Shown: positions 5,034 through 63,308 of the stretch, in pieces
Numbering within the stretch: position 1 is the stretch's first letter
Layout of the letters: each line of letters opens with the position of its first letter
From: Arcobacteraceae bacterium
GTDB taxonomy: Bacteria; Campylobacterota; Campylobacteria; Campylobacterales; Arcobacteraceae
Reading direction: 5' to 3'
Assembly (NCBI GenBank): GCA_048268245.1
Contig: JBLWVX010000005.1
Location: 42,186 to 106,185, forward strand
DNA: 64,000 nt
The notes under the pieces: generated by a model
Databases searched by the model: none
The model's input: the letters and a program-made list of their open reading frames with translations, nothing else
What the model was told of the DNA's origin: nothing
Position numbers and translations under genes: made by a program

Positions 5034-5798
5034 ATGGCTATTCCAATTAGAAAACCTAACGAAATAGCTAAACTTAAAGCAGCAAATGAAATTGTTGCTA
5101 AAACACTTAATTATCTTAGAGAAAACGTAAAACCTGGCATGACTTTATTAGAAGTCGATGCCATGGGTGATAAGTTTTTAAGAGACTTAGGGGCAAGACC
5201 ATCTTTCAAAGGTCTTTATGGTTTCCCTAATTCTGTATGTACTTCATTAAATGAAGTAATAATTCACGGAATACCAGATGATACTGTTTTAAAAGAGGGC
5301 GATATTCTTGGCCTTGATATTGGAACAGAACTTGATGGTTGGTATGGTGATTCTGCGATAACAATGCCAATTGGAAAAATATCAAAAGAAGATGAAGAAT
5401 TAATTGCTTGTGCAAAAGACTCTTTATATTATGCTATTGATATTATTCATGAAGGTATGAGATTCAAAGAACTTTCAAAAGCTATTGAAGAATTTATCGT
5501 TGCTAGAGGTTATCAACCACTAGTAAGATTTTGTGGTCATGGAATTGGAAAGAAACCTCATGATGAGCCAGAGATTCCAAACTACTTAGAGAATGGTAGT
5601 CCAAAATCTGGACCAAAAATTAAAAACGGTATGGTATTTTGTTTAGAACCTATGATTTGTCATAAAGATAGAGAACCAGTTATTTTAGAAAATGATTGGG
5701 ATGTTGTATCAAGAGATGGATTAAGAGGTAGCCATTACGAGCATACAGTTGCTGTTGTTGATGGTAAAGCAGTTATTTTAAGTACAGTTGAAAACTAG
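5034..5798 (+). CDS. map: Type I methionine aminopeptidase
   Basis: CTSLNEVIIHGIP, DIG...GDSA, CGHGIG, EPM, HYEHT metal-binding motifs. Confidence 0.97.
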   Translation: MAIPIRKPNEIAKLKAANEIVAKTLNYLRENVKPGMTLLEVDAMGDKFLRDLGARPSFKGLYGFPNSVCTSLNEVIIHGIPDDTVLKEGDILGLDIGTELDGWYGDSAITMPIGKISKEDEELIACAKDSLYYAIDIIHEGMRFKELSKAIEEFIVARGYQPLVRFCGHGIGKKPHDEPEIPNYLENGSPKSGPKIKNGMVFCLEPMICHKDREPVILENDWDVVSRDGLRGSHYEHTVAVVDGKAVILSTVEN

Positions 5799-5812
5799 GG
5801 AGAACATAAAAA

Positions 5813-6031
5813 GTGGCAAAAGATGATGTAATTGTAATTGATGGTAAGGTTATTGAGGCTTTACCTAATGCAATGTTTAGAGTTGAATTAGACAATGGTC
5901 ATGTAGTATTATGTCATATCTCAGGAAAAATGAGAATGCACTACATTAAAATTTTACCAGGTGATAAGGTTAAAGTAGAAATTACTCCTTATTCATTAGA
6001 TAAAGGTAGAATTACTCACAGATATAAATAA
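5813..6031 (+). CDS. infA: Translation initiation factor IF-1
   Basis: GTG start; [44 protein letters not shown]. Confidence 0.99.
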
Positions 6032-6057
6032 GGATTTTTCCTTATTTATATTTTTTT
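6022..6057 (+). terminator. Intrinsic terminator closing the spc operon
   Basis: 13-bp stem ATATAAATAAGGA-TTTT-TCCTTATTTATAT followed by a T run, overlapping the infA stop. Confidence 0.75.
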
Positions 6058-6066
6058 GGTTTCATA

Positions 6067-6157
6067 AAATATACAAAACTATGAAGCCCTAACAATTAAT
6101 ATTTCGCGCACTTTAAAAAGTTTACTAAAGGCTATGGCTTCATAGTTTTATATATTT
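6067..6157. repeat. Long inverted repeat (22-bp arms, 1 mismatch, 47-nt spacer)
   Basis: AAATATACAAAACTATGAAGCC (6067-6088) versus GGCTTCATAGTTTTATATATTT (6136-6157). Confidence 0.8.
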
Positions 6158-53773: not shown

Positions 53774-55474
53774 ATGAAAATTTCAAAACAAAAATATGCT
53801 TCGATGTATGGTCCAACAACTGGTGATAGATTTAGATTAGCTGATACTTCATTAATAGCAAAAATTGAAAAAGATTATACTACTTATGGCGAAGAGGTTA
53901 AGTTTGGTGGTGGAAAGACTATTAGAGACGGAATGGCTCAAAGCCCAACAGCTACAAATACGTGTGATTTGATTATTACAAATGCTACTATTATTGACTA
54001 TACAGGAATTTATAAAGCTGATATAGGAATAAAAGATGGCTTAATTAGTGCTATTGGAAAAGCAGGAAATCCAAATCTTTGTGATGGTATTAGTGAAGGT
54101 TTAGAAATTGGTGCAAATACAGAAATACTTTCAGCTGAGGGAAAAATTATTACAGCAGGGGGAATTGACTCTCATATTCACTTTATCTCTCCTGGGCAAA
54201 TTGATGAAGCACTAGCTAGTGGTGTTACTTCTATGCTTGGAGGTGGAACTGGACCAAATACTGGAACAAATGCTACAACTTGTACACCTGGTGAGTGGAA
54301 TATATCAAAGATGATTCAAAGTGTTGATGATATACCTATGAACTTTGGATTTATGGGTAAGGGAAATAGCTCAAGTTACGAAGCTTTAAAAATGCAAATA
54401 GAAGCTGGTGCTATGGGTCTTAAACTTCACGAAGACTGGGGAAGTACACCTAAAGCTATTGATACTTGTTTAAGTGTTGCAGATGATTTTGATATACAAG
54501 TTGCAATTCATACAGATACTTTAAATGAATCAGGTTTTGTAGATAATACAGTTGATAGTTTTAAAGATAGAACAATTCATACTTTTCATAGTGAGGGAGC
54601 AGGTGGTGGTCATGCCCCTGATATTATGAAAGTGGCTGGTTTAGAAAATATTTTGCCTTCAAGTACAAACCCAACACTTCCATATACAAAAAACACAATT
54701 GAAGAACACCTTGATATGCTTATGGTTTGTCATCACTTAAGCCCTAAAATTCCTGAGGATGTAAGCTTTGCTGAAAGTAGAATCAGAGGAAATACAATCG
54801 CAGCTGAGGATGTACTTCAAGACTTAGGAGCTATTTCTATTACTAGTTCTGATTCACAAGCTATGGGAAGAGTAGGTGAAGTAATAATAAGAACTTGGCA
54901 AGTTGCTGACTCTATGAAAAAACAAAGGGGAGCTCTTGAGGGTGATGATGAAAAAAGTGATAATGAAAGAATCAAAAGATATATAGCAAAATATACAATA
55001 AACCCTGCAATTGCTTGTGGGATTGATGAGTATGTGGGAAGTGTTGAAGTTGGAAAGATGGCTGATTTAGTTTTATGGAATAGGGCATTTTTTGGAGTAA
55101 AACCTGAGCTTGTTCTAAAAGGTGGATTTATAGCCCTTGCAATGATGGGAGATAGTAATGCTTCTATTCCTACACCTGAACCAAATATGTATAGACCTAT
55201 GTTTGGAAGTTTAGGAAAGGCTAGTGCTAAAACAAGTGCAATTTTTACTTCAAAAGTAGCAAGTGAAAATCTAGCTAGTAAACTTGGGATTAATAAACAA
55301 GTTTTAAGTGTAAAAAACACAAGAAACATAGGTAAAAAAGATATGAAACTAAATGATTTCATAGGTGATGTACAAGTTGATCCAGAAACTTATGATGTAA
55401 GAGTTGATGGAAAACTAATAGAGTCAAACTATGTAGAAGAAGTACCAATGGCTAAGAAATACTTCTTATTTTAA
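53774..55474 (+). CDS. ureC: Urease subunit alpha (catalytic; ureB in Helicobacter nomenclature)
   Basis: [41 protein letters not shown]. Confidence 0.98.
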
Positions 55475-59119: not shown

Positions 59120-60082
59120 TTAAAAATCCAATGGTGATTTAATATCACCTTTATTTAATTCTTTTACTACATGTGTATATATCATCGTAGTTTCTATAGA
59201 TTTATGTCCTAAAAGTTCTTGAATGCTTCGTATATCTGTACCATTCTGCAAAAGATGAGTTGCATAAGAGTGTCTAAAAATATGAGAGGTTACTCTTTTA
59301 TCTATATTGGATTTTTCAACTGCATTTTTTATATTTCTACTTAAAGTCACATCTAAAATATGATGTCGTCTTTGTTCACCACTTCTTGGGTCTTTCGAGA
59401 TTTTATTCATAGGAAAAACATATTGCCATTTGGTTTCAAATTTTGCTTTTGGAAATTTTCGTTCAAGTGCATAAGGTATATATACACTTCCATATCCATT
59501 TTCTAAATCTTTTTGGTGTATTTCTTTTACTTTCTCAACTTGAATTTTAAGTTCATCTTTTATTTTTAGTGGAAGTGGTAAAGTTCTATCTTTAAGTGAC
59601 TTACTATCCCAAATATAGATTTTATCGTATCCGAAATCAATATCTTTTATACGTATATTTTGTGCTTCTTTCATTCTTAATCCACACCCATACATAAGTT
59701 TAACTATGAGTTGATAAATACCTGTCATATTTAATATAATACTTCTTACTTCATTTATAGTTAAAACTACAGGAATATGCTTTCTCTCTTTTGCTCTTAA
59801 AGCTTGAATGTTCTCATCTTTTAATGATATATTCAAAACTTGTTCATATAAAAATAATATTGCATTAAAGGCTTGGTTCTGCGTTGTAGGAGAGACATTA
59901 AACTCAGTGGCAAGATGGGTTAGGAATTGTTCAATTTCAACTTTACCCATATATTTAGGATGCTTTTTGTTATGGTATAGTATATATTTTTTAGCCCAAT
60001 AGATATAGACTCTTTCTGTGCTCATACTATAATGTTTAAACCTTATCTTATCTCTCATAATATCAAGTAATTTTTTAGCCAT
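59120..60082 (-). CDS. intI: Integron integrase
   Basis: Tyrosine recombinase residues [29 protein letters not shown] plus the integron-specific insert [12 protein letters not shown]...WQYVFP...[11 protein letters not shown]. Confidence 0.97.
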
Positions 60083-60403: not shown

Positions 60404-60853
60404 ATGGAAATAAAAAATAATTTTAAAATACCCAAAGAACAAAGTTCTGGTTTTTTATTATGGCAAATTACAACAATTTGGCAAAGAAAAATTAAAATAG
60501 CATTAGAAAGTGTAAATCTTAGTCATTCAGGATTTGTAATTTTAGCTTCTTTGGTTTGGTTCAAAGAACAAAACCAAGAAGTTACACAAACAACAATTAT
60601 TGAACATTCAAAACTAGACAAAATGACAGTATCAAAAAGTTTAAAAACTTTGGAAAAAGATAATTTTATTTTACGAACTGAAAATGAAAAAGATACAAGA
60701 GCAAAAACTATTATTCTTACAGATAAAGGATTTACCTTAGCACTTAACTCTATCAAAATAGTTGAAGACATAGATATCCAATTTTTTTCAAAGTTGAATA
60801 TAGAAGAAAAAAAGAATTTGAATAAAATATTTAGTAAATTAAAGGAATTATAA
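60404..60853 (+). CDS. MarR family transcriptional regulator (cassette 1)
   Basis: SSGFLLWQ, LDKMTVSKSLKTLEK, DTRAKTIILTDKG. Confidence 0.92.
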   Translation: MEIKNNFKIPKEQSSGFLLWQITTIWQRKIKIALESVNLSHSGFVILASLVWFKEQNQEVTQTTIIEHSKLDKMTVSKSLKTLEKDNFILRTENEKDTRAKTIILTDKGFTLALNSIKIVEDIDIQFFSKLNIEEKKNLNKIFSKLKEL

Positions 60854-60854
60854 A

Positions 60855-61331
60855 ATGGAATTTAGTCATTCAATACAAATAAAAGCAACACCACAAACAA
60901 TTTTTAATATTTATGCAGATGTGAATAACTGGTCAATATGGGATAAAGATGTTGAGTTATCCTCAATTCAAGGGGAATTTAAAACTGGTGTTAATGGTGA
61001 ATTAAAACCAAAAGGTGCTCCTAGATCAAAAATATTTTTTACAGAAGTTATAAAAGATAAATCTTTTACAACATTAGGAAAATTACCATTATGTAAAATG
61101 TATTTTGAACATACTATAAATACAATAAATGAGAATATAACAGAAGTCACTCATACAATTAAATTTATAGGGTTTTTATCCCCAGTATTTGGAAAATTAA
61201 TTGGAAATGGTATTAAAAAAAGTCTACCTGATGTACTTGAAGGACTGAAATTGCATGCAGAAGCTAACAAAACCTTGGAAGAAAAACAAGGGTGTACTTG
61301 CGATAGTTTAAAGCTTTATCTTGTAAACTAA
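60855..61331 (+). CDS. SRPBCC / polyketide-cyclase-like protein (cassette 1)
   Basis: IKATPQTIFNIYADVNNWSIWD; ends inside attC1. Confidence 0.85.
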   Translation: MEFSHSIQIKATPQTIFNIYADVNNWSIWDKDVELSSIQGEFKTGVNGELKPKGAPRSKIFFTEVIKDKSFTTLGKLPLCKMYFEHTINTINENITEVTHTIKFIGFLSPVFGKLIGNGIKKSLPDVLEGLKLHAEANKTLEEKQGCTCDSLKLYLVN

Positions 61332-61394
61332 GAAAAAAATAGATTTGAACTATCAAGTATAAAACACCCTTGTTTTTCAAGTCCAACGTTATGC
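61262..61394 (+). other. attC site 1 (133 bp)
   Basis: R'' AGCTAAC, arms TTGGAAGAAAAACAAGGGTGT...ACACCCTTGTTTTTCAAGTCCAA, R' GTTATGC. Confidence 0.9.
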
Positions 61395-61410
61395 TATGAT
61401 ATGAAAATTA

Positions 61411-61419
61411 TGGTATAAT
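61411..61419 (+). promoter_or_regulatory. Extended -10 promoter inside cassette 2
   Basis: TGGTATAAT matches TGnTATAAT, the typical Campylobacterota housekeeping element. Confidence 0.6.
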
Positions 61420-61530
61420 ACCGTTAAATAATTTAGGGGAGCCGTAAAAGGTCTGGAGCAACACCTTGCAGTAAATAAAAGTCTAAAGTGTACATCTGTA
61501 CTAACTAATAAATATAATAAGGATAATATT

Positions 61531-61680
61531 ATGCAAGACAAAAAAAACAACAGAAAAAAAACTCCATCCAATAAAGTCCTAACAGGAATAAAATACAACT
61601 TAGCATTCGCACTAGCATTTAATGCAAATGTAGAACTAAGTACCAATGTAACAATAAATACTGATAGGGTGTTGCCCTAA
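61531..61680 (+). CDS. Putative 49-aa peptide in cassette 2, absent from the ORF track
   Basis: AAGGA 7 nt before ATG; MQDKKNNRKKTPSNKVLTGIKYNLAFALAFNANVELSTNVTINTDRVLP. Confidence 0.5.
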   Translation: MQDKKNNRKKTPSNKVLTGIKYNLAFALAFNANVELSTNVTINTDRVLP

Positions 61681-61713
61681 GTTATTTACTTAAATATACA
61701 ATCAAACTTAAAA

Positions 61714-61845
61714 GCATAACAAATCCTTGGAAGAAGAACAAGTGAAAACGGCGATTTTTCAATCTTCAAAGATTCAATTAGATAAGATATTAAATCAAAA
61801 GTGACAAGTTATTAGTTCACTTGTCCTTCAAGTCAGTCGTTAGAA
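61714..61845 (+). other. attC site 2 (132 bp)
   Basis: R'' GCATAAC, arms CCTTGGAAGAAGAACAAGTGAA...TTCACTTGTCCTTCAAGTC, R' GTTAGAA; outer arms resemble attC1. Confidence 0.88.
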
Positions 61846-61994
61846 CTCCTATAAACTCTAAATTTTGGAAGAAAATCAGAAAATCTTACTTATCGACTTT
61901 ATAAGCTTTATGTAGAGATATAATTTCTTCCAAAAAGTGTTCAAGAAGTAAAATTTATAGATTCTCTAAAATCAGACTTTTTGAACAATAAAAA

Positions 61995-62684
61995 CTACTT
62001 TTTGTAAACTGCAAAGAAATGTGGTACACTTGGTACTTGGTCATCATCATAAGCTAAAAAACTTTGCTCTTTTAGATTTTGTACTGTTATGAACTCATCT
62101 ATTTCTGATTTACTTAAAGGTTTTGGTATTTCATCTTCTTTTTCATGTTCACCTCTACTTCTACATGAAACTAAAATATATCCACTTTTTGAAAGAAGTG
62201 AAGTCATAGAAGTTCTTGCTTTTTTTCTATACGCATCTGGCAAAACTTGAATAGTATTACACTCATAAACTACATCAAAACTCTCAACCCATTCCTTTGG
62301 ATAGTCAAACAAATCAGCTACTACAAACTGAACTTTTGTATTTGGGTATCTGTTTTTACAAAGCTCTATAGCTTTTGGTGAAATATCAAAAGCAACAACT
62401 TCAAAACCAAACTCACTTAAAGCCTGAGCATCATCACCAACTCCACAGCCAATAACACAAGCTTTTTTGTTTGGCTTGTTTATAGAATTTTCTTTTAGCC
62501 AGGATACAAGATAAGGACTTGGTTCTAAATCAGCCCAAAATACCTTCGTATAGTCACCTTTGGCACTCTCATAAATATGGTCAAACCATTGAGTTGGTTT
62601 GTCTTCTTCATAATAAGACTTAACCATATCTTTGTACTTATCTGCTTCAAAAGTATCTTTGTTTAGAAAATCAAATTCATTCAT
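61995..62684 (-). CDS. Class I SAM-dependent methyltransferase (TPMT/TehB-like)
   Basis: ACVIGCGVGDDA motif I, AFDISPKAI, FVVADLF; start moved to MNEF at 62684 for RBS spacing. Confidence 0.88.
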   Translation of the reverse strand: MNEFDFLNKDTFEADKYKDMVKSYYEEDKPTQWFDHIYESAKGDYTKVFWADLEPSPYLVSWLKENSINKPNKKACVIGCGVGDDAQALSEFGFEVVAFDISPKAIELCKNRYPNTKVQFVVADLFDYPKEWVESFDVVYECNTIQVLPDAYRKKARTSMTSLLSKSGYILVSCRSRGEHEKEDEIPKPLSKSEIDEFITVQNLKEQSFLAYDDDQVPSVPHFFAVYKK

Positions 62685-62761
62685 AATCATATACCTTTTG
62701 TTTTTGAGTGATTTTAGCAGTAGTTTTCTTAATGGTGCTATGTATTGACCCGTACAGTCGA

Positions 62762-62790
62762 TTGACAATAGTTCTATAATGCTATATAAT
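62762..62790 (+). promoter_or_regulatory. Consensus sigma70 promoter of the toxin-antitoxin operon
   Basis: TTGACA (62762-62767), 17 bp, TATAAT (62785-62790). Confidence 0.8.
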
Positions 62791-62818
62791 TAATAAAGTA
62801 ATCACAGAAGGTTAAAAA

Positions 62819-63028
62819 ATGGGAAGAAATGAAATTTTTGAGGAAGCATTAGATTTACATGTTACTGAAAAGTTTTTACTTATAGAAGAACTTTTAAAAA
62901 GTCTTGACAAACCTGATATTGAAATAAATAAAGTTTGGGAAGAAGAAGCTCAAAAAAGACTTGATTTATATAAACAAGGAAAAATAGAAGCTTTATCTGA
63001 AGAAGAGTTCTTTTCAAATGAACATTAA
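62819..63028 (+). CDS. Addiction-module antitoxin
   Basis: Acidic 69 aa; EALDL...LIEELLKSLD...WEEEAQKRL..YKQGK pattern; overlaps the toxin start. Confidence 0.85.
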   Translation: MGRNEIFEEALDLHVTEKFLLIEELLKSLDKPDIEINKVWEEEAQKRLDLYKQGKIEALSEEEFFSNEH

Positions 63029-63308
63029 ATACCTAAAACTAGCAAAATTAGAATTTGATGACTCAAAATCTTATTATGAATTGCAACAAAAAGGTTTGGG
63101 AAAAAGCTTTGAAAATGAAGTGAGAAATTCTATAAACAGAATAAAAAGATTTCCTAACTCATATCAAAAAATCTTCAATGAAATAAGAAGATGTACACTA
63201 CATAAATTTCCTCACAATATATTATATACACAACAAAAAGATTATATTTTAATAATTGCGATTGCACATCAACATAGAAAACCTGATTATTGGGTTGGTA
63301 GATTATAA
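63018..63308 (+). CDS. RelE/ParE family type II toxin
   Basis: YYELQQKGLGKSF, IRRCTLHKFPHNILY, IIAIAHQHRKPDYW. Confidence 0.9.
   Translation: MNIKYLKLAKLEFDDSKSYYELQQKGLGKSFENEVRNSINRIKRFPNSYQKIFNEIRRCTLHKFPHNILYTQQKDYILIIAIAHQHRKPDYWVGRL

Follow-up and report, generated by a model that had tools for sequence, protein, structure and literature searches.

Sedentary chromosomal integrons, such as those of Vibrio, hold type II toxin-antitoxin cassettes with their own promoters, many chromosomal-integron cassettes carry a promoter of their own, and protein-antitoxin pairs are credited with keeping integron arrays stable. For the mRNAs of type I toxins, the T1TAdb paper names long-distance pairing of the 5' and 3' ends, 5' stem-loops, and Shine-Dalgarno (SD)/anti-SD elements as key features (PMC8594479). 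Here we describe an integron cassette from an Arcobacteraceae bacterium (genome G000, a 2.68-Mb draft of 28 per cent G+C), located in a stretch of 64,000 nucleotides (nt) that we call the window (G000:C5:42186-106185) and whose coordinates are used throughout unless another contig is named. The cassette encodes a 49-amino-acid (aa) peptide within an RNA whose two ends pair, and among known systems it comes nearest to hok/Sok and Helicobacter aapA/IsoA. The peptide belongs to a new orphan family whose mRNA structure is well defined and in part covarying, and which is mobile between integrons and defence islands. We tentatively read the cassette as a type I toxin-antitoxin-like module, with a probability of about 0.38.

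The segment 61389-61839 is confirmed as an integron cassette that occurs in different array contexts. A first-pass annotation of the window had drawn these boundaries, and they proved exact: the segment is adjacent to an integron integrase gene, is bounded by attC sites, and recurs in a DNA contig from another strain (run X1; 4520 nt), which shows a single difference from 61388-61842 over 455 nt and has flanks unlike those of the window on both sides. The limits of this match, together with the unlike flanks, place the breakpoints at the G/TT crossover points of the two R' boxes. An attC site was taken to be an imperfect palindrome with R'', L'', L' and R' boxes and GTTRRRY at R'. Both box regions, TAACAAAnCCTTGGAAGAA and CTTGTnnTTCAAGTC..CGTTA, are common to attC1 and attC2, and the R' boxes, GTTATGC and GTTAGAA, are each one position off GTTRRRY. 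On its bottom strand, attC1 has a fold of -25.4 kcal/mol (z = -6.6 vs shuffles); the fold of attC2 is weak (z = -0.95). The 5' half of attC1 (61264-61331) is contained in the final ~22 codons of the SRPBCC-like open reading frame (ORF) at 60855-61331. Directly after attC2 lies a third short attC-like site, 61851-61946 (TATAAAC..TTTTGGAAGAAAAT ... ATTTCTTCCAAAA..GTTCAAG; weak fold, z = -2.0), which would create an "empty" cassette of ~100 bp and parts of which recur in three further X1 contigs.

Within the cassette, the two ends of the presumed mRNA are complementary over a long-range helix in two parts, and both paired segments were found where the first-pass annotation had put them. Specifically, TAAATAATTTAGGG (61425-61438) faces CCCTAAGTTATTTA (61675-61688) with one G-U pair, and GCAACACCTTGCAGTA (61458-61473) lies opposite TACTGATAGGGTGTTGC (61659-61675), where the helix includes two G-U pairs and a single bulge. 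The 19-nt insert 61439-57, regarded earlier as a side arm, folds into a small hairpin of its own. This pairing is above chance. The fold of 61424-61690 closes both ends at a minimum free energy of -54.6 kcal/mol (z = -3.8), which 0 of 200 shuffles equalled, and when the 5' 50 nt are paired with the 3' 36 nt, the duplex has -32.8 kcal/mol, a value that 0 of 5000 randomly drawn segment pairs of equal geometry in this genome reached (mean -8.4, standard deviation 3.3, best -26.7).

Four DNA copies were compared: the window copy, one in a second genome (G150), and two at metagenomic loci (L038 and L039). Homology to the window begins at 61426 in all three relatives and ends at 61688, the last paired base, in G150 and L038. 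RNAalifold predicts 58 pairs shared by the four copies, and 95.3 per cent of cells in the pair count do pair. Some compensatory change accompanies the proposed structure, in that 4 of these pairs change on both sides yet stay paired, compared with 1.5 +/- 0.9 in shuffles (at least 4 in 7 of 500) and 0-1 after the partners have been shifted 1-3 columns. In side hairpin Pa, columns 19:24 change on both sides with pairing kept; in leader hairpin Pb, columns 68:77 read A-U, G-C or G-U; and the helix 2 pair 61473:61659 reads A-U, A-U, G-C and A.C across the copies. A longer stem internal to the ORF is also predicted. Helix 1 is kept in three of the four copies and helix 2 in all of them, the breaks being three mismatched pairs in G150 and the loss of the 3' arm of helix 1 in L039. 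The covariation, drawn from four sequences of two lineages, is best described as suggestive. Several G-U pairs persist across the four copies; since the opposite strand would read A.C at these places, the structure is assigned to the plus-strand RNA. The copies are ~81 per cent identical overall, and the first ~50 nt of the leader are near-invariant and better conserved than the coding region.

The enclosed ORF and its AAGGA ribosome-binding site lie where the first-pass annotation had seen them, but its view of the cassette as holding no conventional gene was too strong, for the ORF is a conserved, annotated small gene. Protein searches returned three close relatives and six representatives at E <= 0.001, whose clusters comprise 21 distinct sequences; one cluster member is named "hypothetical protein ... 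[Aliarcobacter butzleri]" at NCBI and another was seen on 42 contigs. In an alignment of 22 peptides, frame, start and stop are kept: 21 begin with MQ at one column and 19 end in ...VLP-stop, the other three being of the L039 type, with a deletion. The last ~14 residues, LSTNVTI(N/D)TARVLP, are near-invariant, and the N-terminal ~15 residues are basic and variable. Judged by this conservation, the "hidden" ORF is a real gene. The minus strand carries an 85-aa ORF that we do not count as a gene, as it has no family match and is broken in L038 and G150.

It is very improbable, and largely excluded, that the element is instead a non-coding structured RNA or resembles a miniature inverted-repeat transposable element (MITE), with the ORF incidental. 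The homology blocks do start, and mostly end, at the inverted repeats, and copies lie inside and outside integrons, as a MITE would have it; however, the module is present once per genome (in G000 as in G150), no target-site duplication was seen on reading the flanks, and the conserved G-U pairs indicate RNA rather than terminal repeats of DNA. The MITE origin that the first-pass annotation had named as its own undoing is therefore not what the copies suggest. A non-coding RNA would fit the strong nucleotide conservation at synonymous sites of codons 14-24, but not the preservation of frame, start and stop in the 22 peptides alongside a broken minus-strand ORF in L038 and G150, and no Rfam family matches at gathering score in the cassette (the best sub-threshold match, E = 0.19, is in attC2).

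The start of the ORF includes a run of eight A residues whose length varies among homologs and sets the reading frame. The run is A7 in L038, and G150 and L039 differ by one A; G150 retains a 49-codon open frame that is shifted off the ATG by one A, and the family member P0002 appears to start at an upstream ATG in a different frame. The varying run and the frame shifts mark 61540-61547 as either a slippage hotspot or a weak point of sequencing, so that the length variation could be phase variation or homopolymer sequencing error.

The coordinates of the module and of the surrounding features are collected in Table 1.

Table 1. Features of the cassette, the module it carries and the neighbouring genes, in window coordinates
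Feature	Position	Strand	Basis or remark
Cassette, 451 bp	61389-61839	+	TT of attC1 R' to G of attC2 R'
attC1	61264-61394	+	R' GTTATGC at 61388-94; 5' part overlaps end of SRPBCC ORF
attC2	61716-61845	+	R' GTTAGAA at 61839-45; L stem folds
Extended -10-like element TGGTATAAT	61411-61419	+	Predicted start near 61426; without -35
Conserved module, 263 nt, presumed mRNA body	61426-61688	+	Homology limits in relatives
Helix 1, 5' arm	61426-61437	+	Pairs with 61676-61687; 12 RNAalifold pairs, 87.5% of cells paired
Side hairpin Pa	61438-61454	+	61438-44 with 61449-54; 6 pairs; loop variable
Helix 2, 5' arm	61458-61473	+	Pairs with 61659-61675; 16 pairs, 13 invariant
Leader hairpin Pb	61488-61501	+	5 pairs; in otherwise variable part of leader
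Promoter-like TTGTCT-16-TATTAT	61514-61541	-	Consensus scan; putative antisense RNA start near 61507, over leader
Shine-Dalgarno AAGGA	61519-61523	+	7 nt before ATG at 61531
49-aa ORF MQDKKNNRKKTPSNKVLTGIKYNLAFALAFNANVELSTNVTINTDRVLP	61531-61680	+	ORF list, homologs
A8 run, codons 4-6	61540-61547	+	Length varies among homologs, sets reading frame
Hairpin UCCU-AAC-AGGA inside ORF	61577-61587	+	4 pairs; C-G to U-A double change in L039
3' arms of helix 2 and helix 1	61659-61687	+	Last 7 codons, stop codon, 7 nt beyond
Local terminator-like hairpin, U-rich tail	61665-61679	+	Competes with helix 2 (shared bases 61665-61675)
Integron integrase gene intI (320 aa)	59120-60082	-	TIGR02249 407.3 bits, cut-off 265; Pfam Phage_integrase and SAM_4
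Cassette 1, two genes (MarR-like; SRPBCC/polyketide-cyclase-like)	60404-61331		Profile annotation
S-adenosylmethionine (SAM)-dependent methyltransferase	61995-62768	opposite	Beyond attC sites; profile annotation
Putative antitoxin/ParE-toxin pair	62819-63308		1 kb downstream of cassette; profile annotation

The module is sporadically distributed. Among 184 species representatives of the family, G000 included, it is present in 2, a result with which the peptide profile agrees; the G150 copy is 81 per cent identical to the window over 267 nt (blastn; query positions 35-297 of 61392-61715), and L038 and L039 were added by a metagenome scan. Of the 23 other matches that came up in the DNA search of the family, 22 were A/T-rich fragments of 26-68 nt. 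Of 400 other genomes sampled from the phylum, four matched, only with A-rich fragments of 33-45 nt, and of 400 other genomes sampled from the order, nine matched the peptide profile, only with noise of 17-19 bits. Back-translated scans of genome contigs, run with the 85-aa minus frame and with the peptide alignment, returned no relative, although their reach was limited, as they missed the G150 copy too. Viral contigs yielded nothing, whether searched with the peptide alignment or with an exact pattern of 22 nt, and plasmid and phage collections gave no blastn match.

The genomic settings of the copies differ. L038 is an integron cassette as well, since its module follows an attC with the same GTTATGCTA... 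and the same cassette start; 35 nt after the stop codon it continues into a co-oriented ORF of 197 aa with hydrophobic ends, of which no homolog was found in the G000 genome, and then reaches the next attC. The G150 genome contains no integron integrase. There the module is positioned at the 5' edge of a SIR2-HerA pair, with the SIR2-like gene starting 38 nt after the module's stop, in a Tn7-like defence island (L050, G150:C1:2183500-2203400) that holds TniB/TniQ, a UvrD-like helicase, HerA, SIR2, endonuclease I and a tyrosine recombinase, as well as GmrSD-HNH, an EcoRI-type methylase and Mrr. L039 resembles G150 but has lost SIR2 beyond its first bases, the 3' arm of helix 1 and the stop codon; it is without a co-oriented downstream gene, and unrelated genes on the opposite strand replace SIR2-HerA. 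At L039 we also observed a 162-aa ORF (5641-6129, minus strand) that aligns with the C-terminal end of PADLOC's "Upx" model at E = 1.3e-35.

These settings raise the possibility, which we consider unlikely, that the module is a portable regulatory leader. Ribosomes are known to stall at a C-terminal Pro-stop in TnaC, and the invariant ...RVLP-stop of a leader peptide could likewise stall a ribosome at the stop codon inside the paired ends; the position of the ribosome would then select either helix 2 or the terminator-like hairpin 61665-61679, which overlap at 61665-61675, and so set read-through into the next gene. A co-oriented gene does follow at 35 nt in L038 (197 aa) and at 38 nt in G150 (SIR2, then HerA), and L039 retains the first bases of the SIR2 junction, but the cassettes of the window and of X1 hold only attC downstream and yet keep ORF and helices intact, and the regulated gene is absent from L039 too. 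Peptide conservation is strongest in the last ~14 residues, with the Pro-stop end in 19 of the 22 sequences, but the same bases also pair in the RNA, which confounds it, and the terminator-like hairpin, whose U-tract is poor, does not stay intact in G150. An extended form of this idea, which we hold to be less probable still, is that of a portable translation-sensing switch: promoter, paired ends and RVLP-stop peptide would signal ribosome activity and gate the transcription or translation of what lies downstream, the switch would be shuffled by integrons and defence islands in front of effectors (SIR2-HerA, a two-transmembrane protein), and the window copy would be the switch as a free-standing cassette.

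Contigs of three RNA libraries from three studies hold the module. One (X5) is 212 nt long and 100 per cent identical to 61460-61671; a second (X17) is 249 nt long, spans 61451-61699 and, by reading, differs in the ORF by three synonymous and two replacement changes, with no indel; a third (X18) is a diverged copy from 61426 onward, preceded by an attC end. That two of these contigs lie wholly inside the module is a weak hint of a discrete transcript. Stretches that these contigs leave uncovered were given no weight.

The same libraries would suit an ordinary, non-toxic small accessory protein, perhaps of the membrane or envelope, expressed from its own promoter by a short mRNA that the end pairing stabilises against exonucleases. 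We regard this explanation as possible, if somewhat doubtful. The ORF is conserved across the 22-sequence alignment and annotated as a hypothetical protein in A. butzleri, its ribosome-binding site is good and free in this copy, the RNA structure is conserved, and no toxin-specific feature is shown. On the other hand, plain stabilisation of an mRNA does not require a leader more conserved than the coding part, nor would one expect from it compensatory changes in small internal hairpins, linkage with defence and addiction genes, or one copy that is frameshifted.

The type I toxin-antitoxin-like reading draws these observations together as follows. The cassette would be a self-contained, horizontally mobile module in which an extended -10 promoter may drive an mRNA of ~265 nt. 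Folding and comparison indicate that the first 48 nt of this mRNA clamp onto its last 30 nt and that the clamp encloses a structured leader of 105 nt and the 49-codon ORF. The product, a small, basic-headed and weakly hydrophobic protein, would be harmful once made; the clamp and the leader hairpins would stabilise the mRNA and restrain its translation, and a cis-antisense RNA from the minus-strand site 61541-61514 could pair with the near-invariant leader. Such a module might stabilise its cassette array or defence island, and A8/A7 slippage in codons 4-6 could give rise to off-switch variants.

Several observations favour this reading: a mobile cassette, end pairing far beyond chance, covariation, and a conserved ORF of fewer than 60 aa; a module that stands alone in this cassette and has addiction or defence neighbours (the ParE pair here; SIR2-HerA, GmrSD and Mrr in G150); and a sporadic distribution (2 of 184) with one decayed copy (G150, with a frameshift and three helix mismatches). 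We also count in its favour the near-invariance of the leader over ~50 nt, which is expected if both strands are constrained.

The promoter-like elements are less clear. The extended -10 element TGGTATAAT that the first-pass annotation had read as a promoter is present, and L038 carries a TGATATAAT box at the same spacing to the first paired base, but the promoter claim itself is unconfirmed, as a consensus promoter scan of 61200-62100 did not list the plus-strand TGGTATAAT and performed at chance level. The minus-strand CATAAT (61528-33) that was noted as overlapping the start codon is present as well, and similar minus-strand hexamers can be read in the alignment of all four DNA copies. Because the minus-strand site overlaps the ribosome-binding site and the start codon, its conservation is uninformative.

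A number of points weigh against the type I toxin-antitoxin-like reading. A clear transmembrane helix is missing from the peptide: over 19 residues, the Kyte-Doolittle mean peaks at 1.10 in this copy and does not exceed 1.56 in relatives, the hydrophobic pattern has a period of 2 (moment 2.13 at 180 degrees vs 0.27 at 100 degrees), and AlphaFold2 returns a single helix, residues 13-39, at a mean predicted local distance difference test (pLDDT) score of only 59. Of the peptide character proposed in the first-pass annotation, the basic N-terminus stands, and the apolar core, borderline in hydropathy, is not a clear transmembrane segment. Nine members compared with Pfam at E <= 10 matched no relevant family, type I toxin families included. 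Constraint on the protein is only mild (ratio of non-synonymous to synonymous change, pN/pS, 0.33-0.65 in the last 36 codons), although RNA structure also constrains the synonymous sites. The clamp leaves the SD sequence uncovered, and SD pairing is low in this copy and inconsistent among copies: the SD is predicted to be free in the window, and GGA has a paired probability of 0.8-0.9, with an upstream UCC, in L038 and G150. Promoter-like matches in 61200-62100 number 4, with 4.2 expected from shuffles, and the evidence for an antisense RNA over the leader is a promoter-like match. The RNA-library contigs carry neither strand nor ends, and carry-over of DNA is possible. The module also occurs outside integrons and directly before other genes, which a type I system does not predict, and the co-oriented gene 35-38 nt past the stop in 2 of the 4 contexts is more suggestive of an operon leader or of two paired genes.

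What stands of the RNA-regulated mobile peptide module first proposed is the cassette, the conserved end-paired RNA and the ORF; the cassette is not gene-less, and the comparisons do not support a clear transmembrane core or consistent masking of the SD. The observation is solid and the family real and mobile, and the mechanism is a proposal; membership in the type I class cannot be claimed, toxicity and the antisense RNA likewise being proposals. The peptide gave 0 matches in NCBIfam, PADLOC and PHROGs, its profile gave 0 matches in the PDB, and the ESM Atlas gave no usable match for it.

No attC was recognised after the genes at 61995-63308. A short attC-like palindrome on the minus strand at G000:C5:118391-118453, 12 kb past the end of the window, and two attC-left-like motifs on the same strand at ~118569-118620 may form a second group of sites. 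A retron-like msr/msd, considered for its paired ends, was dropped, as no reverse transcriptase was seen among the annotated neighbour genes. Elsewhere in the window, an Rfam 5_ureB_sRNA match (53919-54209, minus strand; 70.6 bits, gathering score 40) sits antisense within a ureB-sized ORF (53774-55474).

In the texts covered by full-text literature searches, no paper described a type I module as an integron cassette or from Arcobacter, nor an RNA-controlled small-protein module as a cassette or from Arcobacteraceae, and the word "Arcobacter" has 0 occurrences in the T1TAdb paper (PMC8594479). The cassette illustrates that "empty" cassettes can contain real genes of fewer than 50 codons, and the module offers a tractable case for asking how mobile arrays regulate and retain small genes and whether such modules serve addiction, defence or the regulation of adjacent genes.

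Compared with the type II cassettes of Vibrio, the locus has a similar promoter-like element of its own, a position in an array beside intI and a ParE-type pair nearby, but it contains one small ORF and no gene for a protein antitoxin, and RNA structure fills the cassette. With tnaC-type attenuators it shares a short ORF, a conserved C-terminal Pro-stop and competing helices around the stop, as well as a downstream gene close by in 2 of the 4 contexts; unlike them, it is free-standing here, its clamp encloses the whole ORF, and the module moves between unrelated downstream genes. The resemblance to hok/Sok and to Helicobacter aapA1/IsoA1 comprises an ORF of fewer than 60 aa, an mRNA of ~250 nt, a long stem-looped leader and 5'-3' pairing (PMC8594479), and the host of the cassette belongs to the same phylum as Helicobacter. 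In contrast to both of these systems, the cassette peptide is without similarity to Pfam toxins and only borderline hydrophobic, the clamp does not occlude the SD, the antisense RNA is putative, and the module is carried as an integron cassette.

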